Assembly (NCBI GenBank): GCA_965219665.1
Contig: CBDCOD010000019.1
Location: 30,070 to 94,069, forward strand
From: Gammaproteobacteria bacterium
GTDB lineage: Bacteria; Pseudomonadota; Gammaproteobacteria; CAKMZV01
Reading direction: 5' to 3'
DNA: 64,000 nt
In this document: piece by piece, positions 43,693-64,000 of the stretch
How positions within the stretch are numbered: position 1 is the first letter of the stretch
How the letters are laid out: every line of letters begins with the position of its first letter
Notes under the pieces: generated by a model
What the model was told of the DNA's origin: nothing
Database searches by the model: none
What the model saw: the letters and a program-made list of their open reading frames with translations, nothing else
Position numbers and translations under genes: made by a program

Positions 43693-43697
43693 GAGTT

Positions 43698-44066
43698 GTG
43701 ATGACAATGTACTATACCGAAACACACGAGTGGGTTGAAAAAAATGGAGACGAGCTAACCGTTGGTTTAGCACGTTTTGCCTTGGAGCAATTAGGGGACT
43801 TAGTCTATATTGAACTGCCCGAAGAAGGCACCGAATTTGAAACAGGCGATGAATGCGCAACCGTAGAGTCGGTTAAGGCTGCATCAGAAGTTTACGCACC
43901 TGTTTGTGGTGTGATAACAGCCGTCAATACCGCTTTAGCAGATGAGCCTGCCAGTGGTTCTTCTGAGGATGAGAAAAGCGCTTGGTTGTTTAAAATGACC
44001 CTTGCTGATGCAAGCGAGTTGGACAATCTACTCAGTGCGGAAGCTTACCAAGCGCAATTAGATTGA
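43698..44066 (+). CDS. gcvH: glycine cleavage system H protein
   Basis: Lipoyl-lysine motif ESVKAAS, 122 aa. Confidence 0.9.
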   Translation: MMTMYYTETHEWVEKNGDELTVGLARFALEQLGDLVYIELPEEGTEFETGDECATVESVKAASEVYAPVCGVITAVNTALADEPASGSSEDEKSAWLFKMTLADASELDNLLSAEAYQAQLD

Positions 44067-44191
44067 TTGACACGGCTCCTATCCGCAGCAAGCCCTGCTT
44101 GCACCACCTAAAATCAGGAATTTTTACCCTTTAATGCTGGCTCGGCACCCTTCAAAAGCTGCCGAGTCTATGCCCATTTTTATTAAAAAAC

Positions 44192-47525: not shown

Positions 47526-48662
47526 TTAACCTGAGCAGGTCAACTGCACACTACTCTGTATGCTGTAACCCATATCTATCTTACAAATACGGTAATAACG
47601 CGCTATAGACTCCCCTAATATATCCGTTAAGCGCTTATTGATTTTTGACACCACTTCAGATATACGGGGGGATAATTCGTGCTGATCACCTTCACCTACC
47701 CCCCATGTCTTCTTTACATCCTGAAAACGCCCTGCACTAGTAAGTGGCCTTAATAATTTAAGGAACAACGCTGTATCAAAAGCAGTCCAACTGACCCGCT
47801 CATTCACCTCAGTCTTACATAACAACAACTGATAAAAAGCAGCCTGTAGTGGCGGTAACTCCAGTGTTGTACCACCATGCAACATAAAGGACGCTTTCCC
47901 CCTCTCCCAATGAATGCTGGGGGGGTGCTGCATTTGTCTTATATAGCTTTTAATTTCCCCAAAACGCGTAATACGCTGTAAAAACGCTTGCGATAAATTA
48001 TCACGCGCTGACAAAATCGGCAAACTAATCAGTGAAACACGCGCCTCTTTAGCATCTAACGCTTCACCGCTGGCTGTCACAACGGTCTCTTCTCTTGGAT
48101 AATAAAAATCAGAGCACTCATACTGCTTATCAACCAAAACATGCGACAACACATCCTGTGGACGCGCATAAATAGACATTAAATAGCCCAGATAAAAGCT
48201 CATCGTTTTGCGCCCCCCTGCAAGTGAGGCATGCAAAATGCTATCGGTATCAGCCGTAAATTTTTGCACTAAACTGGCAAGCAAATCAGCACATAACACA
48301 CTGTTCTCCACACTATTAACATCCTCAATAATACCATCTGTTGACATAATAGAATGAATCTTAAGCCAATCTTTAGGCATATCCTTTAGCCCAAAATCGG
48401 CACAAAATCGGCGCAAAACACCCCCTTGATCCAGCACACCCAATCGCTGCACACCCACCAGTGTGGTTACCACATGGATCTCAGTTGGTATAAAAGCAGG
48501 CTCTTGCTTAACTAAAGCATACAGTGTCTCCGTAATAACAGATGGACTAACACCTGCCACACACAATAAAATTTTCCGTTCAGTATTCATTTTTAGTACT
48601 GGTTTGCATTCGTATTTACAGCTGGTATTACAGCCCTTTTTATTATCCTGCATTATCGTCAT
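47526..48662 (-). CDS. CARF-domain protein (Csx1/Cas_NE0113-like), C-terminal domain unassigned
   Basis: ILLCVAGVSPSVITETLYAL is the hallmark CARF N-terminal motif, and ASLAGGRKTMSF is the second CARF motif. No obvious R-x4-6-H HEPN motif in the C-terminal ~150 aa. The true start may be the internal Met at 48590. Confidence 0.7.
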   Translation of the reverse strand: MTIMQDNKKGCNTSCKYECKPVLKMNTERKILLCVAGVSPSVITETLYALVKQEPAFIPTEIHVVTTLVGVQRLGVLDQGGVLRRFCADFGLKDMPKDWLKIHSIMSTDGIIEDVNSVENSVLCADLLASLVQKFTADTDSILHASLAGGRKTMSFYLGYLMSIYARPQDVLSHVLVDKQYECSDFYYPREETVVTASGEALDAKEARVSLISLPILSARDNLSQAFLQRITRFGEIKSYIRQMQHPPSIHWERGKASFMLHGGTTLELPPLQAAFYQLLLCKTEVNERVSWTAFDTALFLKLLRPLTSAGRFQDVKKTWGVGEGDQHELSPRISEVVSKINKRLTDILGESIARYYRICKIDMGYSIQSSVQLTCSG

Positions 48663-48896: not shown

Positions 48897-49682
48897 ATGT
48901 CACAGAAAACCATGTTGCAAAAATTTATACAAAAAAACCTTCACCTAAAAAGATATGCGGCACTCACTATGCTCGCTGGAGCTTTCTTGCTTTCTGGCTG
49001 TGCTGCCATAAAAACCGCAATTGAACACAGTGACTTGGAGGTGCAAACCAAAATGTCTAGCACCATCTTTTTAGAGATAAGTGATACGCTAGAAAAAACC
49101 ATATACGTTGACATCCGCAACACCAGTGACAAGCCCATCAATGTATCTCCAGCCATCCAAACGGCGCTTCAGAAAAAAGGCTACACAATCGTTACTAAAC
49201 CCAAAGATGCCTTTTACTTCTTACAGGGCAACATCTTATATGTCGGCGAAAAAAGCCCCTCTGCACTACAAGACCAAATGGCAGCAGGCTATGGTGCTAA
49301 TGGTGCAGGCGTTGCAACGGGAGCTGCAGTCGGAATTCTGGCGTCTAGATCTGGAAACCGTGGAGAAGCTGCTGTAGCAGGCGCGGTCGTTGGCGGCGCT
49401 ATTGAAGTCATCTCTGGCTCGCTGGTAGAAAACGTAACCTACTCCATGCTAACCGATATTCAAATATCAGAGCGCTCATCCGAAATAGTTGCTCAGACTC
49501 AAGAAAGCAATTTAAAGCAAGGCGAATCCTCCAGCGTGAAGCAAAGCAGTAGTAGGCAAACCAATCGCAAAAAGTACCAAACGCGCATTCTATCCAGTGC
49601 TAACCAAGTCAACTTAGACTGGGAGGCAGCAAGACCCGCTTTAGAAGAAGGCTTAGCAAAATCCATATCAGGTATTTTCTAA
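48897..49682 (+). CDS. traT: TraT complement-resistance / surface-exclusion outer-membrane lipoprotein homolog
   Basis: Lipobox LLSGC, then AIKTAIEHSDLEVQTKMSSTIFLE... and ...KYQTRILSSANQVNLDWEAARPALEEGLAKSISGIF. These parallel F-plasmid TraT nearly block for block ([24 protein letters not shown]... [37 protein letters not shown]). GGAG SD 7 nt upstream. Confidence 0.85.
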   Translation: MSQKTMLQKFIQKNLHLKRYAALTMLAGAFLLSGCAAIKTAIEHSDLEVQTKMSSTIFLEISDTLEKTIYVDIRNTSDKPINVSPAIQTALQKKGYTIVTKPKDAFYFLQGNILYVGEKSPSALQDQMAAGYGANGAGVATGAAVGILASRSGNRGEAAVAGAVVGGAIEVISGSLVENVTYSMLTDIQISERSSEIVAQTQESNLKQGESSSVKQSSSRQTNRKKYQTRILSSANQVNLDWEAARPALEEGLAKSISGIF

Positions 49683-49850
49683 GCCCTATTACGCGATAGC
49701 TTCCAGCGTGTGGTGCTGCTTAAACCTCAAGTTGCACCACACTTTATAAAAGAATACCAACCAAGAGCCATAAGAGGACGATATGACCACACAAAAGTTA
49801 CCACAGCCGCAGGCGATCGGTAACCAACAGCATACAAAAGGAGATATATT

Positions 49851-50621
49851 ATGTCAGAAACACTATTTTTCATTATTTTTATTACACTCTGCATTGTCCT
49901 TGCAATAAAAACCAAAAGCCTGCCCTCAGCAGAGGAGCGGCACAAAATGCGCTTGCAGAAAAACCAGCAAAGACGATTAAGCCATGCTGGCAAAATCAGA
50001 AAAGCAAGAAGAAGCGGCTCAAGCCGTGGAGGAGGGTTAAACCATGTCGGGCTTGGCATGGCAGCGGGTGCAGCAGGATTGGCAGCATACAGCACCCTAT
50101 CCAACAGCGATGATGCTATCGCTTCATCAAACACCTCTACAGCCTTTGATGATAGTTCCTCAAACATCACCAGTTTTGACATAAACCCTGCAAATGGACT
50201 GCCCATGGTGGATGGAATAGGTAGCATAGATATTGGAGGCAATACCTATGGCACCGACTCCGATACCTTTGATGATAGTTCCTCAAACACCACCAGTTTT
50301 GACATAAACCCTGCAAGTGGACTGCCCATGGTGGATGGAATAGGTAGCATAGATATTGGAGGCAATACCTATGGCACCGACTCCGATACCTTTGATGATA
50401 GTTCCTCAAACACCACCAGTTTTGACATAAACCCTGCAAGTGGACTGCCCATGGTGGATGGAATAGGTAGCATAGATATTGGAGGCAATACCTATGGCAC
50501 CGACTCCGATACCTTTGATCATAGTTTCTCATCCTTTGATGACAGCTTTTCATCCTTCGATGACAGCTTTTCATCCTTCGATGACAGCTTTTCATCGTCC
50601 TCTTTTGACGATGATTGGTAA
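49851..50621 (+). CDS. membrane-anchored acidic repeat protein (3 x 41-aa repeats plus SFDDSFSS mini-repeats)
   Basis: N-terminal TM helix, then three near-identical 41-aa units (DDSSSNTTSFDINPASGLPMVDGIGSIDIGGNTYGTDSDTF) and a C-terminal (SFDDSFSS)x3. Confidence 0.55.
   Translation: MSETLFFIIFITLCIVLAIKTKSLPSAEERHKMRLQKNQQRRLSHAGKIRKARRSGSSRGGGLNHVGLGMAAGAAGLAAYSTLSNSDDAIASSNTSTAFDDSSSNITSFDINPANGLPMVDGIGSIDIGGNTYGTDSDTFDDSSSNTTSFDINPASGLPMVDGIGSIDIGGNTYGTDSDTFDDSSSNTTSFDINPASGLPMVDGIGSIDIGGNTYGTDSDTFDHSFSSFDDSFSSFDDSFSSFDDSFSSSSFDDDW
50145..50513 (+). repeat. 3 x 123-bp near-perfect tandem direct repeat (coding), followed by 3 x 24-bp mini-repeats
   Basis: TTTGATGATAGTTCC... recurs at 50145, 50268, 50391 and 50514, a period of 123 bp with 1-2 mismatches per unit. 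Confidence 0.9.
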
Positions 50622-51074: not shown

Positions 51075-51368
51075 ATGAAAACAATACTCACCACCAGACA
51101 CCCTGCCACTGTGCAATGGCTTGCCCGTCAAGGCATTGCAGCAGAACAGGTCGATCATGTATCGTCTGACAGCATTACCCACCCGGTAAAACTCATTGGC
51201 AATGTCCCTCCAGCCATTGCCGCACAAGTATGCCAGCAAGGTGGCGAGTATTGGCACATTGACCTTGATTTACCTCAAACCATACGCGGCAAAGAACTCA
51301 GCGTTTCAGACTTAGAACAATATAAGGCTAAAATAATCCGCTATCACATTGAACAAATCACCTCTTAA
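51075..51368 (+). CDS. small hypothetical protein immediately upstream of cmr1 (candidate CRISPR accessory, Csx16-like?)
   Basis: About 97 aa starting MKTILTTRHPATVQWLARQG. Positioned as the first gene of the cmr cluster after an A-rich promoter-like region (51000-51060). Family assignment not verifiable from sequence alone. Confidence 0.35.
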   Translation: MKTILTTRHPATVQWLARQGIAAEQVDHVSSDSITHPVKLIGNVPPAIAAQVCQQGGEYWHIDLDLPQTIRGKELSVSDLEQYKAKIIRYHIEQITS

Positions 51369-51382
51369 ACGGCACCAAAACT

Positions 51383-52510
51383 ATGGAATTTATCAATCCT
51401 TTTGCAAACAACACGCTAACGGCAACCTATCAAATCAACACCCCCATGTTTTTAGGCGGTGCCGATGGCTGTGCAGATACCATAACCCCCCAATCTTTTA
51501 AGGGGCTCATGCGCTTTTGGTGGCGCGCATGGCAGTGGCAACATGCCAAGGGCAGCGACGATTCAGAAAAACTGGCTGACCTACACCACAAAGAAGCCCT
51601 ACTCTTTGGCTCCAGCGCACCAAAACCAAACACAAAAGACAAAAAGGAACTCTACGGTCAAGGTGCCTTTACTCCATAATCATTCGCCACGAGGAGCTCG
51701 AAAAACTGACCAACTGAGAACACGCAGAGTAAATTCAAATACCTTGCCTACGGCAATGCAATCGTTCAAAAAAGCAAATCCCGAAAAGGATACATCAAGA
51801 ACGCACAAAAGAACATACGAATCAAAAAAATGCACTTTTAAGCAGTTCAAGCTTACTTTAATAGACACAAGTACAGTTGACAGCTGAAGCATCAAGGCTA
51901 TGATGACGTAACCATAGACGCAACAACTTGACAACGACTTACTTAGACCTAATTGGAACTGGTAGGTAGTCTGGGCAGTCGCAAATCACGCAAAGGTTTC
52001 GGCAGTTCTATTCAGAAATAAGATGATTTTCTCTCACCCGCAGGTAATATCAAGAAAAAGTACTAAATGCACTTCTCAATGCCTACAACCAGATATGACA
52101 TGCGCGCTCCGTATCACTGCATTTTCCAAACTAATAAAATACGTAGCTGGCAGGCAGTGACAAAAAAAAACGACTCAACTGCATTGCTCCGCTTCCTGAC
52201 AAGGTCATTACCTGAAAGAGCTAGAACAAATGAGTGGTGCCTTTCCTCAGGCAACCGCCAAAAAGAAGGCATGAAAAATAAACGTCAACTGCTTGGTCTT
52301 AACGATTAAAGACATTAACGATAAACGATCGTCATAGCGCGCCCGTCTTTTTCCACATTCCATCAACAACAGTTCAAGACCCAAATATACGTTACTTCTT
52401 ATGCCATCAAACATGTACTTCACCCAGCACCTGCGCTCTTTGAGAAAACAACCATAGATGAAAAGAAGGGGCTGGCTGCCGTCAAGAACTATGTAAACAA
52501 TATAGCTCAA
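51383..52510 (+). pseudogene. cmr1: cmr1 remnant (type III-B RAMP Cmr1), disrupted by multiple stops and frameshifts
   Basis: The first 98 codons (51383-51679) carry the Cmr1 RAMP motif ITPQSFKGLMRFWWRAWQ, then terminate. The remaining ~830 bp before cmr2 carries only short ORFs in several frames (51543-51887, 52067-52309). Stops at 51677, 51707 and 51843 lie in the original frame. Confidence 0.6.
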
Positions 52511-52528
52511 ACCACGCAAAATTAAAAC

Positions 52529-54493
52529 ATGACAAAAAAATACTTTCACCTCACCATCGGCCCCGTGCAAGGGTTTATAGCCAGCGCGCGCCGTACCCGC
52601 GATTTATGGGCAGGATCCTTCATCCTCTCCACGCTATCTGCCGTTGCCATGCGCTCCGCTATCGCTCAAGAGAGCACAACAATCATTTTCCCCGCTGCTG
52701 ATAAGGGCTCTCTGCAATGGTTGGAACCCTCTAATACCCAACCTGAACGATTCCCTAACTACCCCAACCGCTTTATGGCAGAAGTGCCAGCAGACTTTAA
52801 CCCCCAAGCCGTAGTTACAGACATCAACGCAGCGTGGCAATCAATCGCCAATGCAGTCTGGACAGCAGACTTTCAAAACGCCAACGCAGAAACCAAAGCA
52901 ATCTGGGATAGACAAGTTGCACATTACTGGGAAATAAGTTGGGTGCTGACAGATGACCGAAAAGACACCAGTGCCTTAGATCGGCGCAAAAACTGGCGCA
53001 GCCACATCCCCCCTGCAGAACCCGGTAATAAATGTATGCTCATGGACAGCTTACAAGAGCTCTCCGGCAGCCTACAGGCAAGCACTATAGAACGACAAAC
53101 ATTCTGGAAAAAACAAGCACAAGTAAGCAAGAGATTAGATATAAGCGCCAAAGAACATTTAAGTGCCATTGCCTACATCAAACGCCGCCTAATCATTGCT
53201 CTTAAAGAAGGTATCCAGGCAGAATTAACAGGATGGCAATTAAACCTCAAAATAAATCCAAGTGATGCCAACGAAGACGACATTCGCTCTCAAGCACCCT
53301 CCACCGCTCACATTGCCGCCGTCGATTGGCTAAAAGCCATTAAAAACAAAATGCAAGATGATCAAACAGCCGAAGAAAAAATCAAAACCAACATCCGTAG
53401 ATTGATCGAATCCATTGAAGGCATACCCCAAACCAATCATTTACTCAAAAGCGAAAGCAATTCGACTCTCATTAAAGACAACAGAAAAAATTCTAACTTT
53501 AATAATCTTAGTTACTGTGAAGCCAGTCTGTTTTATCCACACCTTATCAATTCCCGCTTAGACTTGGAACTCACACCCGACAACGAGCGAAAGCTGCTCG
53601 ACAACCTCAACGCACTATGCGAGCGCGTAGACAAAAAGCCCACTGCCTTTTATGCAATACTGTGCATGGATGGCGACAGCTTTGGGCAATTCCTGAGCAA
53701 CTCACAAAACCACGCCAAAATCAGCAAAGGGCTAAATGCATTCACTAAAGAAGTGCCGAAAATAGTAAAACAACATACAGGCTTCACCCTCTATGCCGGC
53801 GGTGAAGATGTGCTTGCCATGCTCCCCATTAGCCAAGCCATTGCTTGCGCCCATAAGCTGCAACAAGAATTTACTGCAATTTTTCAAAGTAAGCTGAATA
53901 AGGGCGGAGAGAACGTACTGCCCACCATCAGCGCCGGCATCGTCTTTAGCCACCTCAAAATGCCGCTGATGCAAAGCATAAGCCGCGCCCATGAGGTCTT
54001 AGACGACATTGCCAAAGAACAAACCGGGCGTAATGCCATCGCCTGTGAAATCAACAAACCCTCTGGTCGTACCGCACAATGGGCAATGCCTTGGGACAAG
54101 GCAGCCGATGACGATGATAACAGCGCTATGATGATTAGCACTATTAGCGAGACATTAAAAGAGAAAAATCAAGCCGATGCCTCTTTTTCTACCAAATTCC
54201 TCTATCACTTTCGCAATAGTTATCACTTATTCAAAGATAAGAACAGCCATGAGGCAATAAGCAAAGATCTGCTCACTGCCTTAGTGATCAGCAACCTACA
54301 ACAAAGCAAAGGGCGCGCTGCTGAACTCAGCGCAGCAGAACAAAAACTTGCCAAACAAATCATCGATCAATCCTGGATTTATAAATCAGATAGCAAAGGG
54401 CAGCCCATACAAAGCGACCAAATAAGTGATGCCTTCGTAATGCTCGCCCGCTTCTTAGCCACTGATGGCATAGACGGAGGGAACCGCACATGA
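52529..54493 (+). CDS. cmr2: Cmr2/Cas10 lacking the HD nuclease domain, with a cyclase palm domain carrying GGED
   Basis: N-terminus LTIGPVQGFIASARRTRDLWAGSFILSTLS is the conserved Cmr2 D1 block. Palm motifs ILCMDGDSFGQF (about 53666-53690) and YAGGEDVLAML (GGED at 53801-53812). 654 aa, consistent with Cmr2 minus the ~215-aa HD domain. Confidence 0.85.
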   Translation: MTKKYFHLTIGPVQGFIASARRTRDLWAGSFILSTLSAVAMRSAIAQESTTIIFPAADKGSLQWLEPSNTQPERFPNYPNRFMAEVPADFNPQAVVTDINAAWQSIANAVWTADFQNANAETKAIWDRQVAHYWEISWVLTDDRKDTSALDRRKNWRSHIPPAEPGNKCMLMDSLQELSGSLQASTIERQTFWKKQAQVSKRLDISAKEHLSAIAYIKRRLIIALKEGIQAELTGWQLNLKINPSDANEDDIRSQAPSTAHIAAVDWLKAIKNKMQDDQTAEEKIKTNIRRLIESIEGIPQTNHLLKSESNSTLIKDNRKNSNFNNLSYCEASLFYPHLINSRLDLELTPDNERKLLDNLNALCERVDKKPTAFYAILCMDGDSFGQFLSNSQNHAKISKGLNAFTKEVPKIVKQHTGFTLYAGGEDVLAMLPISQAIACAHKLQQEFTAIFQSKLNKGGENVLPTISAGIVFSHLKMPLMQSISRAHEVLDDIAKEQTGRNAIACEINKPSGRTAQWAMPWDKAADDDDNSAMMISTISETLKEKNQADASFSTKFLYHFRNSYHLFKDKNSHEAISKDLLTALVISNLQQSKGRAAELSAAEQKLAKQIIDQSWIYKSDSKGQPIQSDQISDAFVMLARFLATDGIDGGNRT

Positions 54494-55572
54494 ACAACAC
54501 CATGCAAACCACCCACATCACCCTCACCCCCAACGACAGCCTGTTCTTTCGTGAATCCCGCCCTATGGAATCAGTCGGCGGCGCTATCCTAGAAAGCCAG
54601 TTTCCACCCAACCCCCAAACCCTTATTGGCGCCCTAAAAGGCTATGTTGGCGAGCAATATGGTGTGGACTTTAAAACCGTTCGCGAAAACACTAAAAAGG
54701 GCAAGCCCTATACAAAAGAGGGCTTCACCATGGACTTTGGTGACAGCAACGCAGACCTCTCCATAACCGATATGGCACTACGCCATCAAGACACGGGCAT
54801 AGGCACAGACTACTACCCTGCCCCTCTCTTTGTGGCTTACAGCGAAACCGATAAGCAATATGCTCTCATTCAACCCAGTGCGCAATCAACTGAATGCGAT
54901 TTAGGCAACGTACACTTACCCACCCTCCCTAAAGAGAAGACGGGCTATAAACCCTTAGAAAACGCTTGGCTGAGTAGTAAAGACTACACCAATGTCCTTC
55001 AAGGCAAACTGCCCACGAGCCACCTTAAAAAAAGCGCCATCCTTAAGGATGAGTTTCATCTTGGCATCAGCATTGACAAAGAGAGCAACACCGCAGAAGA
55101 CCACAAACTCTATCAAAGCATGCACACCCGCCTCAAGCAAGGCATGCAGCTGCATCTCACGCTCCGACACCGTAAAGACATACAAATCAACAACGGAACC
55201 ATCCGCTTAGGCGCAGAAGGAAGAAGTGCCCAACTCACAATCATCGAATCGCCCGAAAGCATCACCTCCACCCCTAAAAATAACAAAATAAGCCTAATCT
55301 TAACCACCCCCGCACTGTTCAAAAACACAGACGCACTGCATGAAGCAATAGCGCAATACGGCACCCTGATCAGCGCCTGCTTAGGCAAAACCACCCGAAT
55401 GGGCGGCTGGAATTTAGCCCAAAATCAACCACGAGAAGCCATCTCAGCCATTCCCGCTGGCAGCACGTGGTTCGTTGAGGCAAGCCCTAACGCATGCCCC
55501 CCTGCCGCCATTGGCGAGCAAACAACTAAAGGCTTTGGCATCGTCCGTTGCGGCACCTGGCAGCACCTATAA
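54490..55572 (+). CDS. cmr3: Cmr3
   Basis: N-terminus LTPNDSLFFRESRPM...SQFPPNPQTLIGALKG is typical of Cmr3. C-terminal G-rich loop TTKGFGIVRCG. ATGA overlap with cmr2. Confidence 0.8.
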   Translation: MNNTMQTTHITLTPNDSLFFRESRPMESVGGAILESQFPPNPQTLIGALKGYVGEQYGVDFKTVRENTKKGKPYTKEGFTMDFGDSNADLSITDMALRHQDTGIGTDYYPAPLFVAYSETDKQYALIQPSAQSTECDLGNVHLPTLPKEKTGYKPLENAWLSSKDYTNVLQGKLPTSHLKKSAILKDEFHLGISIDKESNTAEDHKLYQSMHTRLKQGMQLHLTLRHRKDIQINNGTIRLGAEGRSAQLTIIESPESITSTPKNNKISLILTTPALFKNTDALHEAIAQYGTLISACLGKTTRMGGWNLAQNQPREAISAIPAGSTWFVEASPNACPPAAIGEQTTKGFGIVRCGTWQHL

Positions 55573-55597
55573 ACACCCCAAAATTGAGGAATATAAT

Positions 55598-56443
55598 ATG
55601 AAAAACACCATACTTGGACTACACGCACAAACCGCCATCCACGCAGGATCAGGGCAATCATTGGATGTCATCGACCTCCCCATTCAGCGCGAAGCCCACT
55701 CAGGCTACCCCGTTATCTTTGGTTCATCGCTCAAAGGCGCCCTGCGCGCCCATGCTGACCACAACAACGCTGAACACCTCAGCACCATCTACGGTTCAGA
55801 AAATGCGGAACACGCCAGCGCCATCCGCATCAGCGATGCCAAGCTCATCGCCCTGCCGGTGCGCTCACTCACCACCCACTTTCGCCTTGTAACCTGCCCA
55901 CACCTCTTAGAACGCCTCAACCGCGACCTCGCCCAAATTGGCAAGAATACATTAGAAATACCCAGCGTTAAAAATGAAACTGAGATTCGCACCGCTGATC
56001 AAAAAGATCAAACAAACCTATTCTTAGAGGAGTACCGCTACACCGTACGCACCTGTGGGAAACTACCGCACTGGCAACAACAAATAGCGGAACTCACCGG
56101 ACAAAACAGCGAACAGTTAGCAAACCTATCCGTCATCTCCAATGACCAGTTTGCTCACATCTGCCAAACCGCCACTGCCATTGCCCCACACATTGCCATT
56201 GACAATAAAAACAAAACCGTCAAAGGCGGCGCACTCTGGTTTGAAGAAACCCTACCCCCCGAAACGCTCCTCTACAGCCTCATCAGCGCGGTTGATGCTC
56301 GACATAAAGACACAACATTAAAAGCGACTGAAGTGCTTAACGCATTCAAGCAGCCTCTAACAGAAAGCTATCTCCAAGTCGGCGGCAACGAAACCGTGGG
56401 CATGGGTTGGTGCAAGGCGACGGTAACTGGAGGTGCACAATGA
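55598..56443 (+). CDS. cmr4: Cmr4 (backbone RAMP, target-RNA cleaving subunit)
   Basis: MKNTILGLHAQTAIHAGSGQSLDVIDLPIQRE...IFGSSLKGALRAHA are the RAMP G-rich and catalytic-loop motifs. The start was chosen at the ATG at 55598, which has a GAGGA SD; the ORF track begins at 55475. Confidence 0.9.
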   Translation: MKNTILGLHAQTAIHAGSGQSLDVIDLPIQREAHSGYPVIFGSSLKGALRAHADHNNAEHLSTIYGSENAEHASAIRISDAKLIALPVRSLTTHFRLVTCPHLLERLNRDLAQIGKNTLEIPSVKNETEIRTADQKDQTNLFLEEYRYTVRTCGKLPHWQQQIAELTGQNSEQLANLSVISNDQFAHICQTATAIAPHIAIDNKNKTVKGGALWFEETLPPETLLYSLISAVDARHKDTTLKATEVLNAFKQPLTESYLQVGGNETVGMGWCKATVTGGAQ

Positions 56444-56838
56444 GTAATACGATTACACCCCAAACCATTGAGCAACAGCGCGCAGCGTTTGCATACCAAT
56501 TAGTCACAGCTCATAAAAAGAACGATCGACTCAAAGCCTACGCCCGTAACCTACCAGGCATGATACTCACCAACGGCTTTGGGCAAGCCATGGCGTTTTG
56601 CCTATCTAAAAGCGGCAAGAATAACAGCAATGAAGAACAAGCCTATACAGCCCTGCAACAAGGCATCTTTGAATGGCTTGGGGCTGAACCGCAAAAACTG
56701 CTTAATGGTGGCTCAGACATCGTTGCCGCCATTACTGAACTTGACCAACACCGATATCAACTCGCCACTGCCGAAGCCCTTGCTCTATGCAAATGGATCA
56801 AGCAACTCGCCACCGCTCTCATTGAAGATACAGACTAA
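56440..56838 (+). CDS. cmr5: Cmr5 (small alpha-helical subunit)
   Basis: About 132-aa helical protein between cmr4 and cmr6. ATGA overlap with the cmr4 stop. Confidence 0.7.
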   Translation: MSNTITPQTIEQQRAAFAYQLVTAHKKNDRLKAYARNLPGMILTNGFGQAMAFCLSKSGKNNSNEEQAYTALQQGIFEWLGAEPQKLLNGGSDIVAAITELDQHRYQLATAEALALCKWIKQLATALIEDTD

Positions 56839-56867
56839 AAACACCGACTAACCCAACTTCTAAGAAA

Positions 56868-58126
56868 ATGCCCATGTCAAACCCATCAATGTTGCCACTA
56901 CACAAATCTTGTAAAGACGCAGCCAAGCAATTAGATTCACACCTTGGTCTCTCAGGTTCACACCTTGGTCTCTACTTTGATAAATACTTCTCCTACTCCC
57001 GCTCTCCAAATAATAACATTGAAGCCGCACCTGAAAACAAAAAAGAATTTCTAAAAAAATTCAACAAAGCTAACATCCCACCATCGCTTGAAAATGCCAA
57101 CATCAATCAAGTACGACTCATCCAAAAATTAAACGGCACATTCAAAGCCTTCAAAACCACCTCCTCCTTTGTAACCGGCATGGGGCAAGATCACCCCTTA
57201 GAAAATGGCTTTGCTTTTCACCCCACCTACGGCACCCCCTACCTCCCCGGCAGCAGTGTCAAAGGCATGCTGCGCCACTTCTTTACCCACCACTACCAAT
57301 GGGGAAATGAAGATAAAGCAACATTCCTCAACCAAGTATTCGGCAGCGATAATCCCAAGCAACCCGCCATAGGAAACTACCTGTTTTTTGATGCCCTCCC
57401 TACCGAGACCGTCACAATGCACACCGAAATCATGACCCCGCACTACGGCGATTGGTACGCAAAAGGAGGCGACAAAACAGAAAATACAAAAAACGACACA
57501 TCATCCCAGGCGATTGGCACGAACCAATCCCTATCCAATTCCTTGCTGTCAAAAACGCCACCTTCCTCTTTGCCATCGCCCCGCGCAATGGCACAACCGA
57601 GCAGCCTGACTACCTCTCCTTTCTCTTTAAAGGACTCGACTGCATCCTCATGCACCTTGGCGCTGGTGCCAAAACTGCCACCGGCTTCGGTTATATGGCT
57701 TTTAATGAAGAACAAACTGAAAAATCAGAAGAAAATGCGCTAACCCCCGAAGAAAAGAAAGAGCGCGAGCGAAAAATTGAAGAGCAGAAGCAAAAAGAGA
57801 TTAAAGAGAATGCATGGAAAGAAACTAAAGCAAAAGAACAGGCAGAAGCAGCAAAGCGAGCAGCATTTGACAGCACCCTATCTACAACAGATAAATGGTT
57901 TTTAGAGAAAAACTATGCAGAATGCTCTCCAGATGGCGATGCCCTGGTTTTCAAAATAACCAAGCCCAACAAGGCACTCAAAGACCCTGACTTATCCTCA
58001 AATTTTGAGTTAAAGAAGGCGGTCATTGAAGTCATACAGGTGCATAAAGAAAAACCCTATTCCCACACCTTCTGGGACAAAACAATACGCAAAAAGGTCA
58101 ACGATTCACTCAAAAAAATGAAATAA
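56868..58126 (+). pseudogene. cmr6: cmr6 with an internal frameshift (two overlapping reading frames, 56868-57743 and 57452-58126); it carries an unusual ~170-aa charged C-terminal extension
   Basis: Frame A has the RAMP block YGTPYLPGSSVKGMLRHFF. Frame B has the C-terminal G-rich loop HLGAGAKTATGFGYMAF. The frames switch between 57447 and 57517, where a 9-bp direct repeat GGCGATTGG flanks a 62-bp segment. Confidence 0.75.
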
Positions 58127-58191
58127 TCCTGAACACATAAAAGCAATACGCCATAATGCTTATGCTCAATGCACACAGCTATTAACCAACT

Positions 58192-59127
58192 ATGAACTTA
58201 GAACTTATGCAACTAATAGAACAATTCGGCTTTAGCCTCTTCGTCTTCGCTTTAATCACCCTTCTGCTCATCTACCTCCTGATGGGCATAAAAATCGTAC
58301 CGCAAGCACAGCAATGGGTTATTGAGCGATTAGGCTCCTACAATCGCACCTTAGACGGTGGGCTCAACTACATCATACCCATCGTTGACTCTACACGCGC
58401 CAAATACCAAACACAAGAACAAGTCATTGACATTCCCTCGCAGCGCGTTATCACCCGTGATAACGTTTCCATCTCTATTGATGGACTCGTATTCATCCGC
58501 ATCACCAACGCCAAACAAGCCATCTATGGCGTATTAGACATGCGACACGCCATCTCACAATTGGCACAAACCACGCTCCGCTCCGAAATTGGCAAAATGG
58601 ACTTAGACGACTCCCTCTCCTCACGCGACCACCTTAACGCCGCACTCCTCACCGCATTAGATAATGCTGCAGGTGGCTGGGGTGTCAAAGTAACGCGTGT
58701 AGAAATATCTGACATTGACGTACCCAGCGAAGTCAAAACAGCCATGGAACTGCAACTGCGCGCCGAGCGCGAACGCCGCGCCACTGTTACCAAAGCCGAA
58801 GGCGATAAAAACGCCGCCATTGCTCAAGCCGAAGGCGAGCGGCAACGTGCCTTTAAAGAAGCTGAAGCTATTGAGCGCACGGCAGACGCTAAACAATATG
58901 AGCAAATTCAACTTGCCGAAGGACAAAAGCAAGCGATGGAACTCATCAACCTGGCAATGGAAAACAACCCCCAAGCTGCCGATTTTTTACTTGCAAAAGA
59001 CCGCATCAAAGCCTTCAATGACCTTGCCAAAAACACCAGTCAAGACAAAGTTATCGTACCGTACGAAGCCAGTGCCCTCGTTGGCGCACTCTCAATTATC
59101 ACTGAGAACCTTACTAATAAAAAATGA
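58192..59127 (+). CDS. SPFH/band-7 (stomatin/paraslipin-like) membrane protein
   Basis: N-terminal TM helix, then KIVPQAQQWVIERLGSYNRTLDGGLNYIIP, the canonical SPFH start. C-terminal Ala/Glu-rich coiled coil. 311 aa. Confidence 0.85.
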   Translation: MNLELMQLIEQFGFSLFVFALITLLLIYLLMGIKIVPQAQQWVIERLGSYNRTLDGGLNYIIPIVDSTRAKYQTQEQVIDIPSQRVITRDNVSISIDGLVFIRITNAKQAIYGVLDMRHAISQLAQTTLRSEIGKMDLDDSLSSRDHLNAALLTALDNAAGGWGVKVTRVEISDIDVPSEVKTAMELQLRAERERRATVTKAEGDKNAAIAQAEGERQRAFKEAEAIERTADAKQYEQIQLAEGQKQAMELINLAMENNPQAADFLLAKDRIKAFNDLAKNTSQDKVIVPYEASALVGALSIITENLTNKK

Positions 59128-59555
59128 CCACTCTACTCATCCCAGCTATACCCGCGTGGTATCTCATCATCATCGGCATAGCCATTGTTGGTGTTGAACT
59201 GTTTTTCATGAACCTATTCGTCATACTCTGGTTTGGACTGGCAGCCATATTCATTGGTGCCCTCAACTTATTTTTACCCTTTTCTCACGGCGAATATCAA
59301 CTACTACTCATTGCACTAATCGGCAGCACTGCCCTGTTCATGTATCATAAAAAATACAAACCATCACGCACCAAAAATAAACACTTAGACTCCTATACTA
59401 CAGGTGGAACAGGTAGCGTAATCACCACTAATCAAGGCATTAAAATCAATTATCAGGGAACGCTCTGGAGCATTGCCCCACCAGCCCCCACCAACCTAAA
59501 AGACGGCGACAACGTCATCATCAAAGAAATCAAGTCCAATCAAGTCGTTTTATGA
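59124..59555 (+). CDS. NfeD-like short-form membrane protein (partner of SPFH proteins)
   Basis: Three hydrophobic helices, then a C-terminal OB-fold-like region (GTGSVITTNQGIKINYQGTLWSIAP...GDNVIIKEI), as in YuaF/YbbJ. ATGA overlap with the SPFH gene. Confidence 0.7.
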   Translation: MTTLLIPAIPAWYLIIIGIAIVGVELFFMNLFVILWFGLAAIFIGALNLFLPFSHGEYQLLLIALIGSTALFMYHKKYKPSRTKNKHLDSYTTGGTGSVITTNQGIKINYQGTLWSIAPPAPTNLKDGDNVIIKEIKSNQVVL

Positions 59556-60589
59556 TTCTCATATCACTGATTGGACCACAAATTCTCCCCAATATTTTTG
59601 CGCTCCGACACTACGGCAATGAAATCAGCAAGCACTTCATACTCTGCGATAAAAACCCTAAAAATCTGGCAGCTGCCCAATTGCTTAAAGATTTTTGTGA
59701 ACCAAGCGGCATGCCAACCATCGTCATAACAGCCAACCTCAAACAAGCCCACAGTTGCTACAACGTTTGCTGCCAAATCATTGAAGACAACCGTGCCGTG
59801 CAAACCATTCTCAATGCCACCTGTTCGCTCAAAACTGCCGCTCTTGGTGCTTTCATGGCAATGCAACAGCACAATCAGCGCACCATCTATGTTGACGGGC
59901 AAAGAATCCAACGCGTCCACCACTCAGAGGATCACAACACCATCGCCCCTATTAAAGCCCGCATCAGTATTGCAGACTACCTACAAGCATACGGCTTTAG
60001 CATCACACCCTCTACCCAAGACCACACCATAGGGGAAAAATTTGGCAACTACCTCTTCGACGACAACTTGCTCAGAATATGGATGAGGGATAGTAAATAC
60101 ACCCCCCACGAACGGATTGCAAAATGGCTCAGAAGCAACAACATACTCGCAGGCAACCGCACGATAAAACCTGAAAAACGGGCATGGTATTCTGGCACCT
60201 GGTTTGAGCAATGGGTCTATGTCACACTGAAAAAACACTTTGCAAAAAATCCTGCTGTATCCGACATTTGTAGCAGCTTTAAGGTGAAAAAACATGCAGA
60301 AAATGAAATAGACGTTGCCTTTGTTCATAATAACATCCTGCACCTGATTGAATGCAAAGCAGGAAAGCCCGAAAAACAAAGCCAAGAAGGCCTGCGCTTC
60401 TCCAGCGTTGCTGAAACCATTGGTGGCACCTACACCAAATGCGCCGTACTATTTTTGCGCCCAACAAAAGACACCATAAAAGAACGCGCCAGCGACACCA
60501 CCAACTTACACTACATTGACAACATTGAAAACACAACCGACTTATGCACCAAAGTAGATCAATGGCTTGAAAAATCAAATTTCTCATGA
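59552..60589 (+). CDS. CARF + PD-(D/E)xK nuclease (Can2/Card1-like cOA-activated nuclease)
   Basis: N-terminus MILISLIGPQILPNIFAL is the CARF strand-1 motif. The C-terminus has E...IDVAFVHNNILHLIECKAGK at 60311-60360, i.e. D...E-C-K. 345 aa. ATGA overlaps on both sides. Confidence 0.7.
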   Translation: MILISLIGPQILPNIFALRHYGNEISKHFILCDKNPKNLAAAQLLKDFCEPSGMPTIVITANLKQAHSCYNVCCQIIEDNRAVQTILNATCSLKTAALGAFMAMQQHNQRTIYVDGQRIQRVHHSEDHNTIAPIKARISIADYLQAYGFSITPSTQDHTIGEKFGNYLFDDNLLRIWMRDSKYTPHERIAKWLRSNNILAGNRTIKPEKRAWYSGTWFEQWVYVTLKKHFAKNPAVSDICSSFKVKKHAENEIDVAFVHNNILHLIECKAGKPEKQSQEGLRFSSVAETIGGTYTKCAVLFLRPTKDTIKERASDTTNLHYIDNIENTTDLCTKVDQWLEKSNFS

Positions 60590-61452
60590 ACCCCAAAAAC
60601 AACCCGGCACAAAACTTTAAGCTAAAAAATGCACTCACTAGCACCTTTGGCAGTCTGGACCTAACAACCATAGGAATCGCCATACTCCTATTAGCACTTA
60701 TTGGCTGGAGCGCAGACAGCCTACTCAACACCCTCACCTTTAGCATAGCTTCCCCCTTAACGCACCTTAGCATAGCAGCACTATCACTCGCTGCCTTATC
60801 CCTTCTTATAAAAATACTGCATAAAAAAGCACAAGGCATAGGCAACAACCTCCTCATTGAAGCCACCCAAAACAAACCCAAACGCTTAGATGCCCAAAAC
60901 CTTATTTTTATCGTATCGCCTGCAAGGCACTTTGCCGATATAGATAAAAAACTACAATGCCCAGATACACAAAAAAACCTACAAGAATTGATAGAAGAAG
61001 AATCCACAGAAACGAAACCGACTACACAACCCAAAAAAAAATACCAATGGTATATGCCCTATAGCACCATCAAAGAACATCAGCCCAAAAACATCTATCC
61101 CATCTTTACTTCAGGCGAATATGGCAGCAGTAAACAAAAAGAGACTTTCTTAAATCTCTTTAGAGGCATATTCCCCGACAAAACCATTCATGATGCAGAT
61201 TATCAAACCCTACAATCCACCGATTTGACTGAGCTATCCAAAGCCTACGACAAGATAGAACAAAAAGTTCTCAACGACGACAAATACCGCCCCAACCAAA
61301 TTCTCGTTGATGTAACAGGCGGTCAAGCCTCCATGAGCGCCATGCTCGCTGTCAACTCCACCATTGATGATGCCATCATCAGCTACGTGGACACCAATGA
61401 CTATAAAATTCACTACTTTGACTTTCGCAGCCACAACCCATCAGAAGAATGA
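60586..61452 (+). CDS. two-TM membrane protein with a C-terminal CARF domain (Cam1-like membrane effector)
   Basis: Hydrophobic helices at about aa 27-48 and 58-80. The C-terminal ~180 aa has the CARF-like motifs LIFIVSPA and ILVDVTGGQASMSAM at 61301-61340 (D-x-T-G-G-x-x-x-M). 288 aa. Confidence 0.55.
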   Translation: MNPKNNPAQNFKLKNALTSTFGSLDLTTIGIAILLLALIGWSADSLLNTLTFSIASPLTHLSIAALSLAALSLLIKILHKKAQGIGNNLLIEATQNKPKRLDAQNLIFIVSPARHFADIDKKLQCPDTQKNLQELIEEESTETKPTTQPKKKYQWYMPYSTIKEHQPKNIYPIFTSGEYGSSKQKETFLNLFRGIFPDKTIHDADYQTLQSTDLTELSKAYDKIEQKVLNDDKYRPNQILVDVTGGQASMSAMLAVNSTIDDAIISYVDTNDYKIHYFDFRSHNPSEE

Positions 61453-62297
61453 ATGCCTTCCTCCCGCTATTCAAAATCCAAATAACCCTTACAGCCCTAT
61501 CCTCTATTACATTTCGCACTCCCCATCACAACATCATTTTAGATGCCTTCCTACGCTCACTCCTCAGCCAAGAGCAAAAAAAACAATACGCCACCACGCT
61601 TATCATCAGCCCCCAAACACCAATCCAAGCCATCACATACGGCAACGCCTACACCTTTAACATCACAGCCATTAACAATGCCCTTCTGCTTAGCCGGCTA
61701 CTATTCCAACTCAAATCCTTACCATTCTCTGCCCGTATTCGAGACACAACAGCCCCGCTACGCCACAACCTCAAATTCCACCAAGCCACCTGTATGCACA
61801 CAGGTCATAAAGCCAACAGCATTAAAGACCTCACCCCAATCCAAGCCATAGACCTTGAAAACAGAGCATTAGAACTCGCCTCGCATAGCCAGCTCCCCAT
61901 AACCCTAAACTTAGCACGCCTCAAAAAAAGCCACCTTAAAAAAACCAGCAACACCGAACAAAACTTCGCCCAAAACAGCACCGAACTAACCGCTGAACTC
62001 CTATTAGAGCGCATCAACACCACCATAAGCCACCTACACCGTGCGCTCAACATAAATGCCACACCGCAGCCCCCTCTTCCTACAGCCACCACAACAACGC
62101 AATACTGCAAATGGATAAACCTACCCTACTTTGACAAAAACAAGCAGGAAAAAACATGCGGCGGACTCAACGCACAACTCACGCTAAGACCGCAAAACTG
62201 GTCATTGGACCACTACCGCCAACTGGCACTGATTGAACACGTAGGCATTGGACAACGCCGCACATCTGGTTTTGGCACGCTCACCATCAACGCATGA
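61449..62297 (+). CDS. cas6: Cas6-like RAMP endoribonuclease (standalone)
   Basis: C-terminal glycine-rich loop HVGIGQRRTSGFGTL (G-h-G-x5-G-h-G) typical of Cas6. 282 aa. ATGA overlaps with its neighbours. Confidence 0.55.
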   Translation: MNAFLPLFKIQITLTALSSITFRTPHHNIILDAFLRSLLSQEQKKQYATTLIISPQTPIQAITYGNAYTFNITAINNALLLSRLLFQLKSLPFSARIRDTTAPLRHNLKFHQATCMHTGHKANSIKDLTPIQAIDLENRALELASHSQLPITLNLARLKKSHLKKTSNTEQNFAQNSTELTAELLLERINTTISHLHRALNINATPQPPLPTATTTTQYCKWINLPYFDKNKQEKTCGGLNAQLTLRPQNWSLDHYRQLALIEHVGIGQRRTSGFGTLTINA

Positions 62298-64000
62298 AAA
62301 TTCCCCTACCGAAACTACCTTCCCAGCAAGCCCTCAGCGTTGACCTCCAGTTTATACAGCCCCAAAATCTTCCACTCTACCATGAACCTGTTATTCAAAA
62401 TGCACTCAAGGCACTCACCCGCCAACTGCTCCCCTCAAACACCTCCACCCCTTTTACCCTCATCTGCCCCGAAAGCGCCCGCACCCACTATCCTGCAAAC
62501 ACCTCCTACTACTTTTGCATAATCAGCCTCAGCATAGACTCCATACAACCCCTCTGGCAGCAACTCATCATCAAACTGCGCCAACTCCCGATAGAATCAA
62601 CGCCCTTTATCAAAAACTGCACCCTCATATCGCTACGAAACCTCTTAGACGGCACGCCCGTATCCAATGCCCAATCCTTAACCCAATACACCTTTGACTT
62701 AGCACTATCGCAAGCAACAGACTGGCGCAACACACAAACCACAACCCTTAATTGGCGCTGGATTAGCCCTGCCCATACCCCTATCGGCAACACCTTATGC
62801 CGCGATAAAACCGAGCTATCTGCCAAACACCTCTGTGAACAAATCGCACACAGCCTATACGATCTCATCCAGCACAATAACAGCACCGAAACAAACCACT
62901 TATTTCATCTATGGACTCAATCCCAGTACAAGCATATAGCAATACATAAAGCCGATCTATATTGGATAGACACCCCTTATCACCCAAATCAAACCAATTT
63001 CTCTGGCATATCAGGTAACTTTACATTTAGCCTGTCTGAAGAGGCCCCCACCAAATTATTAGCCCTCATCATCTACGCTCAGAATATTGGCATTGGCCTT
63101 AATTACCAAAAAGGATTTGGCAAATACCGCCTCTCAAGCCCAAACGATACGTACTTCTCCACACTATCCAACCACTGCATGCCCATCACGCGCTGTGAAT
63201 CATTGCTCAAGCACTTTACGCACCCCCAAATGATTGAACGCGCCATTGCAGAATTAGAGCAAAAACCCAACATCGACAAGCTCAGCGACAAAACCCATGC
63301 CCAAATACAATCTGCCATTGGTCAAGTTCGCAAACAAGATTACACCCCTCCTAATTTATTTGGGTTCACCACGCCTAAAAAAGACGGCACCGACCGCCTA
63401 CTCGCTGTCGCTCCCCTATATGATCGCATCCTACAAAAAGCCTGTGCCATCGCACTCACACCCACCTTAGAAGCTATCATGAGCCAAGCCTCCTTCGGCT
63501 ACCGCAAAGGACTATCACGCCAGCAAGTCCGCTATGCTATTCAGCAATACTACAGGCAAGGCTACAAGTGGGTCTTGGAATCCGACATTGATGATTTCTT
63601 TGACTCCATTAACCGCACGCTACTCATCAATCGCCTTGCCAGTTTTTTTGGCCCTGACCCACTATGGAACCTCATGGAACAATGGCTCAACAGACCCATA
63701 ATCTATCAAGGGCACACTATCCAACGTCCCGATGGCATACCACAAGGCTCACCTCTCAGCCCACTACTAGCAAACTTTATTCTGGACGACTTTGACTCTG
63801 ACCTTGAAGCCTATGGTTTCAAACTCATTCGCTTTGCTGACGACTTTGTTATTCTCTGCCGCTCTAAATCTGAAGCCATAGAAGCACGCAGTGCCGTAAC
63901 GAAACATCTCAAAGAAATCAATCTCAAACTCAATCCAGAAAAAACCCACATTAGCGAAATAGACCACGGGTTCCGCTTTTTAGGTTACCTTTTCCACGAA
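62294..64000 (+). CDS. Cas6-reverse transcriptase fusion (N-terminal part of a Cas6-RT-Cas1 protein), truncated by the window end
   Basis: Manual translation finds no stop from the ATG at 62294 to 64000. The N-terminal ~330 aa end in a second Cas6 G-rich loop, NIGIGLNYQKGFGKYRL. After that come RT motifs: RLLAVAPLYDRILQ, QGSPLSPLLANFIL and the catalytic box FADDFVIL. Absent from the ORF track because it is edge-truncated. Confidence 0.8.
   Translation, partial: MKIPLPKLPSQQALSVDLQFIQPQNLPLYHEPVIQNALKALTRQLLPSNTSTPFTLICPESARTHYPANTSYYFCIISLSIDSIQPLWQQLIIKLRQLPIESTPFIKNCTLISLRNLLDGTPVSNAQSLTQYTFDLALSQATDWRNTQTTTLNWRWISPAHTPIGNTLCRDKTELSAKHLCEQIAHSLYDLIQHNNSTETNHLFHLWTQSQYKHIAIHKADLYWIDTPYHPNQTNFSGISGNFTFSLSEEAPTKLLALIIYAQNIGIGLNYQKGFGKYRLSSPNDTYFSTLSNHCMPITRCESLLKHFTHPQMIERAIAELEQKPNIDKLSDKTHAQIQSAIGQVRKQDYTPPNLFGFTTPKKDGTDRLLAVAPLYDRILQKACAIALTPTLEAIMSQASFGYRKGLSRQQVRYAIQQYYRQGYKWVLESDIDDFFDSINRTLLINRLASFFGPDPLWNLMEQWLNRPIIYQGHTIQRPDGIPQGSPLSPLLANFILDDFDSDLEAYGFKLIRFADDFVILCRSKSEAIEARSAVTKHLKEINLKLNPEKTHISEIDHGFRFLGYLFHE

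Follow-up and report, generated by a model that had tools for sequence, protein, structure and literature searches.

A predicted Can2/Card1-family nuclease and a divergent 2TM-CARF membrane protein encoded side by side in a type III-B (Cmr) CRISPR-Cas locus

Background

Several membrane proteins that couple transmembrane (TM) helices to a sensor of cyclic oligoadenylates (cOA) have been described, and they are the closest known systems to one member of a gene pair that we analysed in a type III-B (Cmr) CRISPR-Cas locus of a gammaproteobacterium (assembly GCA_965219665.1, contig CBDCOD010000019.1, positions 30,070 to 94,069). Gene A of this pair is predicted to encode a nuclease of the Can2/Card1 family, and gene B a membrane protein with two TM helices and a CARF domain (2TM-CARF). 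The whole stretch of 64,000 nucleotides (nt) is called the window throughout, coordinates are positions in it, and the labels L001 to L069 stand for the loci and contigs with which it was compared.

Cam1 of Nitrosococcus halophilus (PDB 8t64-66) has 206 amino acids (aa), one TM helix and a pore-lining residue, D17, and the tested homologues of this protein (NhCam1) share 42-47% identity (PMC10808066). Cap1 of Parafilimonas terrae consists of two TM helices, a CARF-like sensor and DUF4579, the last of which is missing from most of its relatives; the sensor, reduced relative to a full CARF fold, bears the motif R(X3)QQ(X10)L, and one cyclic tetra-adenylate (cA4) is bound per tetramer (10.1101/2025.11.13.688252). 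Chp1, with a HAD domain, four TM helices and a CARF domain, forms a tetrameric cA4-gated pore (10.64898/2026.08.05.743128), and cA4 is the molecule bound by all three proteins (PMC10808066; bioRxiv 10.1101/2025.11.13.688252; 10.64898/2026.08.05.743128). The CARF-TM protein of type II Panoptes carries a C-terminal TM region, is held off by cyclic tri-adenylate (cA3) and has mCpol, not a Cas10 complex, as its partner (PMC13577387). Proteins with two TM helices and a CARF domain were described in type III-A/B/D loci by Shmakov et al. 2018 (bioRxiv 10.1101/270033), and a TM+CARF cluster by Shah et al. 2018 (PMC6546367). Additionally, membrane CARF effectors of the Cam1 class are known to co-occur with Can1-2 nucleases (PMC11229360).

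Identity of the two genes

We consider genes A and B to be the signalling-output module of this type III-B locus, working through cA4, and give this reading a probability of about 0.75. Both open reading frames (ORFs) exist exactly as delimited in the initial annotation, a note made from the DNA letters and their translations. Matches in Pfam and PADLOC, remote relatives and intact copies in sister contigs indicate that they are real genes and not chance ORFs. The genes, and the two parts of gene B, are as follows.

59552..60589, + strand: gene A, predicted Can2/Card1-family nuclease, 345 aa
60586..61452, + strand: gene B, predicted 2TM-CARF membrane protein, 288 aa
60655..60819, + strand: putative TM hairpin of gene B (hydropathy, AlphaFold2 helices, family motif)
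60850..61434, + strand: predicted CARF domain of gene B, residues about 89-283

For gene A, an N-terminal CARF domain, a C-terminal E...D...ECK motif at 60311-60360 and, with them, the Can2/Card1 architecture had been proposed, and the profile and structure comparisons support each of these. The CARF domain spans residues 1-143, beginning with MILISLIGPQILP (residues 1-13, nt 59552-59590), and the PD-(D/E)xK domain residues about 209-339. In Pfam, CARF_Card1 matches residues 2-143 with 34.1 bits (cut-off 24.6; 3.2e-8) and Card1_endonuc matches with 47.8 bits (cut-off 26.4; 1.3e-12), while the PADLOC model CARF4 CARF_PDDEXK is matched at 3.9e-45. The matches in the Protein Data Bank (PDB) are Can2 (7bdv, 2.8e-15), VC1899 (1xmx, 1.8e-12) and Card1 (6wxw, 7.5e-7), with the N-terminal domain aligned to residues 17-155 of 7bdv.

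The catalytic residues E252, D254, E267 and K269 of gene A, which lie in the segments ENEIDVAF (residues 250-257) and LIECK (residues 265-269), are aligned with E276, D278, E291 and K293 of 7bdv. D254 begins at nt 60311 and K269 finishes at nt 60358, within the interval first proposed. Gene A thus shares with Can2 and Card1 both the order of the two domains and the E-D-E-K catalytic motif, and at 345 aa it is similar in size to the chains of Can2, Card1 and VC1899 (366-385 aa). The signature loop of its CARF domain reads T-C-S-L-K, like that of VC1899, whereas Can2 7bdv has T-G-G-T-K. Judged by these comparisons, gene A is a member of the Can2/Card1 family. Can2/Card1 nucleases are in general activated by cA4, and a cA4-dependent, homodimeric nuclease activity can be predicted for gene A, with indirect backing from the presence of a Csx16 gene in the locus (see below).

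Topology and fold of gene B

Kyte-Doolittle windows reveal two hydrophobic segments in gene B, at residues about 24-46 and 58-78 (19-50 and 56-80 at their widest), and these correspond to the two N-terminal TM helices first seen in the sequence. The first helix (TM1) terminates in W41-S-A-D44-S, the local form of a family motif W-x-P-D-G, and the second (TM2) is rich in Ser, Ala and Leu. Lysines stand before the hairpin (K4, K12, K14) as well as after it (K76, K80, K81), which argues for an N-in/C-in topology with the CARF domain in the cytoplasm.

AlphaFold2 (AF2) run on the single sequence gave a predicted local distance difference test score (pLDDT) of 41; the model used here was built on the family alignment, A1, and reached a pLDDT of 83 and a predicted template modelling score (pTM) of 0.73. 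It consists of a short N-terminal helix, two helices at residues 26-52 and 57-86 (pLDDT 86-93), in agreement with the hydropathy analysis, and an alpha/beta domain at residues ~90-283. A variable insertion modelled with low confidence, residues 113-153, coincides with the gapped part of the family alignment. In a Foldseek search of the PDB with this model, the CARF domain of Cam1 ranked first with a target-normalised TM-score of 0.66-0.71, and Crn1, Can2 and Cad1 came next. The C-terminal domain is therefore modelled as a canonical, helix-decorated CARF fold with D-x-T-G-G, as had been suspected from the string DVTGGQASM, which was first placed at 61301-61340 and occupies residues 242-250 (nt 61309-61335). 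The residues that mark this domain are the beta1 Ser S111, W155-x-M157-P, H165, S175, F188, D242-V-T244-G-G246 and Y267. Direct sequence comparison was silent: a Pfam scan of gene B gave no match of any kind, and phmmer against the PDB, at E-values up to 10, gave none either, Cam1 chains included.

Gene B as a divergent member of a catalogued family

At the level of profiles, gene B is readily recognised. It is matched by the PADLOC models 'TM+CARF' (PDLC01053; 5.2e-20, residues 27-281), 'CARF8--CARF_TM' (PDLC01947; 2.5e-13, residues 29-279) and 'CARF, 2 TMs' (PDLC01168; 1.4e-12), and the same three profiles match all 53 of the 53 aligned family members; the name CARF8 is taken from these model names. 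When 1.84 billion cluster representatives were scanned in full with HMMER, 61 remote relatives of gene B were recovered at 24-33% identity, nearly all of 250-300 aa and about half of them aligned over almost the whole protein. A k-mer homologue search with gene B found its own lineage only, and the same search with the family profile found five matches on short contigs. The genome collection searched with gene B alone gave no relatives, and no 2TM-CARF family member was found in the plasmid collection.

The A1 alignment shows the motifs W-x-P-D-G at the outer end of TM1, F-L-S in beta1, W-x-M-P-x-x-A-I-x-x-H, I-T-S, D-[IV]-T-G-G-Q-K-x-x-S and F-Q-Y-V-S-T. Of 78 family members, 56 have the first of these in the relaxed form W-x-x-[DEN]-[GSAT]. 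Gene B keeps all the invariant or nearly invariant residues numbered on it in this alignment, and has I-V-S where the family has I-T-S. The median length of the family is 280 aa, usually within 250-300 aa, and two helices are usual, so that gene B with its 288 aa represents the norm. Gene B belongs, as a divergent member, to the catalogued and computationally defined 2TM-CARF (CARF8 CARF_TM) family and does not represent a new architecture.

The initial annotation had further suggested that gene B may represent a distinct effector family. This was not borne out, given the descriptions of 2018, the PADLOC profiles and the usual size of the family. The overall interpretation offered there holds for the Can2 architecture, the CARF fold and the unlikeness to a strict Cam1, and fails for the distinct, unrecognised family. 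That gene B founds a new subfamily, as the absence of any relative above 31% identity among representatives of about 15 billion proteins might suggest, is also improbable, and we judge it jointly with the accessory role of the SPFH genes discussed below.

Comparison with Cam1, Cap1, Chp1 and Panoptes

The contrast with canonical Cam1 noted in the initial annotation stands: gene B has two helices where Cam1 has one, and 288 aa where Cam1 has 206. The Cam1 chains in the PDB are not matched directly by its sequence. Three elements account for its extra length, namely a cytoplasmic N-terminus of 25 aa, a second helix and the insertion at residues 113-153. Cam1 matches the family profile of gene B only marginally (E 1.7e-3 over 60 residues). 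The acidic D17 of Cam1 lines its pore; the conserved acidic residue of gene B, D44, is placed at the outer end of TM1. Gene B as Cam1 in the strict sense is ruled out by its two helices, its length and the lack of recognisable homology to NhCam1.

Cap1 and gene B are alike in having a short N-terminal segment, a TM1/TM2 hairpin and a cytoplasmic cOA sensor. However, the Cap1 motif R(X3)QQ(X10)L is found in none of the 78 family members, gene B included, and DUF4579, which is restricted to a Cap1 subclade, was not found on gene B in Pfam; with a canonical CARF domain modelled instead, gene B as Cap1 is likewise ruled out. No chain of Cap1, whose structure may have been released later, turned up in the PDB copies that were compared. 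Chp1 resembles gene B in carrying a C-terminal CARF domain behind its last TM hairpin, but it has a HAD domain and four helices where gene B has no HAD domain and two helices only. The Panoptes type II CARF-TM protein, like gene B, joins a CARF domain to a TM effector; its TM region is C-terminal and its partner is mCpol, and an identity of gene B with this protein is ruled out.

The canonical-CARF 2TM family is widespread, and its cousins Cam1, Cap1 and Chp1 each showed a different mechanism of pore gating. A member as divergent as gene B helps to define which residues of 2TM-CARF proteins matter.

Related loci and pairing of effectors

Scans of genome and metagenome collections with a tighter sub-alignment yielded 62 loci, which together with the window were reduced to 56 non-redundant loci (635 kb); a recognisable ORF of the family is present in 51 of these. 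A cas10 gene lies within reach in 32 of the 51. A gene for a reverse transcriptase (RT), with or without Cas1, is found in 19, and in 15 loci it lies no more than 1.5 kb from the 2TM-CARF gene (for example L002 9995-11800, L018 11-3553 and L032 7671-9500), which points to a link between the 2TM-CARF family and RT-containing type III adaptation modules. A CARF-PD-(D/E)xK protein occurs in 13 of the 51 loci (two clusters of 9 and 3, and the window), and a Cas_NE0113 CARF protein in 6. Membrane CARF effectors thus recurrently have a nuclease effector beside them, in line with the published co-occurrence of the Cam1 class and Can1-2, and as genes A and B both belong to catalogued families, their pairing is an ordinary one. 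The hosts of the family include Desulfuromonadales, Geobacter, Thermodesulfovibrionales, Chlorobiaceae, Brocadia, Thermovibrio/Desulfurobacteriaceae, Chromatiaceae, Thiomargarita, Mariprofundaceae and others.

Signal and proposed mechanism

Two further genes of the locus bear on the nature of the signal.

51075..51368, + strand: Csx16 (Cas_VVA1548), Pfam Cas_VVA1548 2.4e-23
52529..54493, + strand: Cas10/Cmr2, presumed cOA synthase, TIGR02577 5.9e-45 and Cas10-Cmr2_palm2 5.7e-36

Csx16 of the window is identical (100%) to a 97-aa gene of L001. The Csx16 family is a cA4-specific ring nuclease, and ring nucleases specific for cA4 have not been found alongside effectors that use other signals (PMC12409355). 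On motif check, Cas10/Cmr2 lacks the HD motif and has the cyclase motif GGED (not GGDD) at residue 424, a variant also present in Cas10 of L023 and L058. The solved Can2 structures matched by gene A (7bdv, 8q41) are complexes with cA4. Csx16, the GGED cyclase, the cA4-bound Can2 structures and the binding of cA4 by Cam1, Cap1 and Chp1 point together to a cA4 signal, and cA4 is most likely the activator of both gene A and gene B. Gene A, gene B and Csx16 are then an ordinary cA4-signalling output of predicted nuclease, membrane effector and ring nuclease.

The following sequence of events may be envisaged. Binding of target RNA by the Cmr complex would switch on the cyclase of the HD-less Cas10, and cA4 bound to the CARF dimer of gene A would activate its PD-(D/E)xK nuclease for non-specific cutting of DNA and/or RNA. 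In parallel, cA4 would bind the cytoplasmic CARF domains of gene B, which by its predicted topology sits in the inner membrane as an N-in/C-in hairpin and is expected to be pre-assembled as an oligomer, probably a tetramer. By analogy with Cam1, Cap1 and Chp1 its helices would then open a pore, and the presumed toxicity would follow from depolarisation of the membrane and growth arrest. Cleavage of cA4 by Csx16 would finally reset the system. In this scheme the domain assignments, the motifs of the catalytic and ligand sites, the membrane topology, the operon and the family of gene B come from the sequence comparisons made here, and the ligand, the oligomeric state, the pore and the toxicity are inferred.

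Organisation of the locus and its sister contigs

According to the ORF list, an unbroken run of genes on the + strand extends from cas10 to a Cas6-like/RT fusion and makes up the type III-B (Cmr) locus. The remaining features of the locus and its surroundings are given below.

47526..48662, - strand: Cas_NE0113-family CARF-type protein, 378 aa, Pfam Cas_NE0113 2.1e-30
51383..52500, + strand: cmr1 pseudogene (tblastn with L001 Cmr1, three-frame translation)
54490..58126, + strand: cmr3 to cmr6 block (ORFs; TIGR01898 on both cmr6 halves)
54490-55572, + strand: cmr3
about 55595-56443, + strand: cmr4
about 56440-56838, + strand: cmr5
56868-58126, + strand: cmr6, split over two frames (halves 56868-57743 and 57452-58126)
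58192..59127, + strand: SPFH/Band 7 (paraslipin-type) membrane scaffold protein, 311 aa, Pfam Band_7 8.9e-38
59124..59555, + strand: NfeD-like SPFH partner, 143 aa, weak Pfam NfeD_membrane 0.052
61449..62297, + strand: gene C, weakly Cas6-like, 282 aa, Cas6 profiles at E about 1e-3
62294..64000, + strand, continuing past the window end: Cas6-like/RT fusion, Pfam RVT_1 3e-39 at residues 361-565

The SPFH, NfeD and A to C genes are linked in series by ATGA overlaps of 4 nt, the start of gene B overlapping the stop of gene A in this way. No terminator-like site was found on the + strand at 57800-62500, and no CRISPR array at 40000-64000.

Two contigs of about 97.5% identity to the window, L001 and L027, carry intact copies of genes A and B, which are undamaged in three sister contigs in all. 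In the window, about 98 codons of cmr1 are readable before many stops set in, and the L001 Cmr1 (354 aa) matches the window by tblastn only over residues 1-208 at 58%. A cluster of small indels at about 57480-57500, where the sequence is rich in A, shifts the frame of cmr6. L001 and L027 carry undamaged copies of cmr1 and cmr6, and cmr6 encodes 411 aa in the former and 417 aa in the latter.

The initial annotation had placed both genes next to SPFH/NfeD, and an SPFH gene followed by an NfeD-like gene does lie immediately upstream of gene A. The NfeD-like protein has TM helices at its N-terminus and a beta-rich domain at its C-terminus. Ordinary SPFH ('paraslipin') proteins of Thiomicrospira, Thiomicrorhabdus and Hydrogenovibrio share 60-70% identity with the SPFH protein of the window, which suggests a gammaproteobacterium related to these as the host. 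The closest non-identical relatives of the window's protein are those in L028 and L029, at 79-83%, and in L067 and L069, at 69-71%. Each of these four SPFH genes has an NfeD partner and a housekeeping neighbourhood with no cas genes. The NfeD-like protein of the window is 55-57% identical to the products of the genes after SPFH in L028 and L029, and its placement behind SPFH is matched in L067 and L069. The partner genes of L028 and L069 give faint or weak matches to PF01957 (NfeD). In L067 and L069, NfeD overlaps an unrelated downstream gene, as it does in the window. No synteny of the window with these housekeeping SPFH loci was found outside the SPFH-NfeD pair. The simplest reading is that SPFH/NfeD is the host's own housekeeping pair with cas modules on both sides; the modules may have been inserted around the pair, or the pair may have been captured. 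Embedded in the operon as it is, the pair is the one unexplained curiosity of an otherwise ordinary finding.

Alternative readings

Several points weigh against a functional output module. Gene B is an outlier of its family, with W-S-A-D-S for W-x-P-D-G, GGQA for GGQK and no more than 31% identity to any relative. Experiments on the canonical-CARF 2TM family were not found in the literature searched, so that pore formation by gene B is proposed by analogy only, and the best sequence-profile match of its family in the PDB is a ring nuclease, Crn1, and not an effector. The cmr1 pseudogene and the cmr6 frameshift imply that the upstream sensor may fail in this genome, unless they are assembly errors. 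Gene B differs from the sisters at 2-3 positions, too few to show purifying selection, and the ratio of nonsynonymous to synonymous differences (pN/pS) of gene A against the sister contigs is 0.6-0.7, on 13-15 differences. Such damage and this ratio could mean that the locus is decaying here, with the two effector genes left as relics that are no longer triggered. We regard this as unlikely, as the window has intact ORFs for both effectors, Cas10, Cmr3-5 and the RT fusion, cmr1 and cmr6 are intact in sisters at 97.5% identity, the cmr6 indels, in A-rich sequence assembled from a metagenome, may be errors, and cOA effectors can also take their signal from a second type III system in the same genome. 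The similarity to Crn1, where Sso2081 (6.8e-6) and Sis0455 (2.7e-4) are the top PDB sequence matches of the family profile, raises another possibility, namely that gene B is no toxic effector but a cA4 sink or ring nuclease tethered to the membrane, tuning Can2 by limiting or localising the signal. The motif D-I-T-G-G-x-K-x-x-S is common to the family and the Crn1 ring nucleases, and the Ser after beta1 (S111) is nearly invariant in the family. Gene B, however, has A248 in place of the Lys of GGQK, a dedicated ring nuclease is already provided by Csx16, and the conserved motif in the TM hairpin would be needless in a mere anchor. The toxicity of Cam1 and Cap1, moreover, comes from the TM part (PMC10808066; 10.1101/2025.11.13.688252), and extrinsic ring nucleases occur in 81% of Cam1-class loci, which has been read as a sign that no intrinsic ring-nuclease activity is present (PMC12409355). 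A sink or ring nuclease is accordingly very improbable in our estimate.

The SPFH/NfeD pair invites a further alternative, in which it is a functional part of the module that scaffolds, gates or restrains the 2TM-CARF pore, or repairs the membrane after the pore has opened, the five overlapping genes from SPFH to gene C being one membrane-directed unit. The 4-nt overlaps from SPFH to gene C with no terminator-like site, and the retention of the same arrangement (SPFH-NfeD-gene A-gene B-gene C) in three sister contigs, L001 and L027 among them, would be in keeping with this. Additionally, SPFH/NfeD pairs lie in or beside two further, unrelated 2TM-CARF loci: in L034 (7442-8817), NfeD, SPFH, an NE0113 CARF gene, cas10 and csm2-5 follow one another on one strand with short gaps, the TM-CARF gene being divergent, and in L018 (4420-6157) an SPFH-NfeD pair ends 93 nt past the last CRISPR repeat. 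The order within the pair differs between loci (SPFH-NfeD versus NfeD-SPFH), which suggests independent events. With about one SPFH gene per Mb as background, by our own estimate, roughly 0.6 such loci would be expected among the 56 (635 kb), and 3 were found. These enrichment statistics are nevertheless weak and post hoc; the SPFH protein of the window is 79-83% identical to copies in plainly housekeeping contexts that lack cas genes, 53 of the 56 family loci have no SPFH gene, PADLOC gives no match for SPFH/NfeD, and the pair goes without mention in the surveys of CRISPR-linked genes that we compared. A part of SPFH/NfeD in the module of the window therefore seems quite unlikely to us, and we are equally doubtful of the general form of the idea, that SPFH/NfeD proteins are recurrent accessories of type III systems with membrane CARF effectors, corralling, gating or buffering the pore. 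A link of stomatin-like microdomains to cyclic-oligoadenylate immunity was not found described in the literature searched; were the association true, it would give bacterial SPFH cages a role in controlling a defence pore. We retain a cA4-driven output of genes A and B, with the SPFH/NfeD pair as a housekeeping neighbour.

Adaptation genes and minor observations

The RT fusion is presumably an RT-Cas1: over 579 aa it is 30% identical to a fusion protein of L018, which has 957 aa and itself reaches well past the RT domain. Gene C, which has no relatives among the 56 related loci, ends in a Gly-rich loop (GFGTLTI) at its C-terminus. A comparable loop closes the N-terminal part of the RT fusion, and the locus may thus contain two Cas6-like units, gene C and this N-terminal part. 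The homology of L001 ends at window position 62338, and a phage-type integrase (11753-13476 of L001) is found there in place of the Cas6-like/RT fusion, so that the adaptation module is variable among close relatives.

The locus encodes three CARF-type proteins (gene A, gene B and the NE0113 protein) in addition to one Csx16 ring nuclease. A TraT gene and, after it, an ORF weakly matching TraS (48897-50621) lie between the NE0113 gene and the cmr operon; the latter ORF contains three tandem repeats of 123 nt (50143-50511) and further repeats of 21 nt (50512-50595). The presence of such conjugation-type surface-exclusion genes hints that the locus lies on or beside a mobile element. The CRISPR locus at 52000-64000 also shows a strong strand bias, with a GC skew of -0.18 to -0.38 and an AT skew of +0.17 to +0.28, and exceeds in this the window's first 40 kb. 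Farther upstream, a 635-aa WD40 beta-propeller protein (38494-40401, - strand) is encoded ahead of a glycine-cleavage cluster with gcvT and gcvP (42601-46993); this WD40 protein is unrelated to the effector pair.

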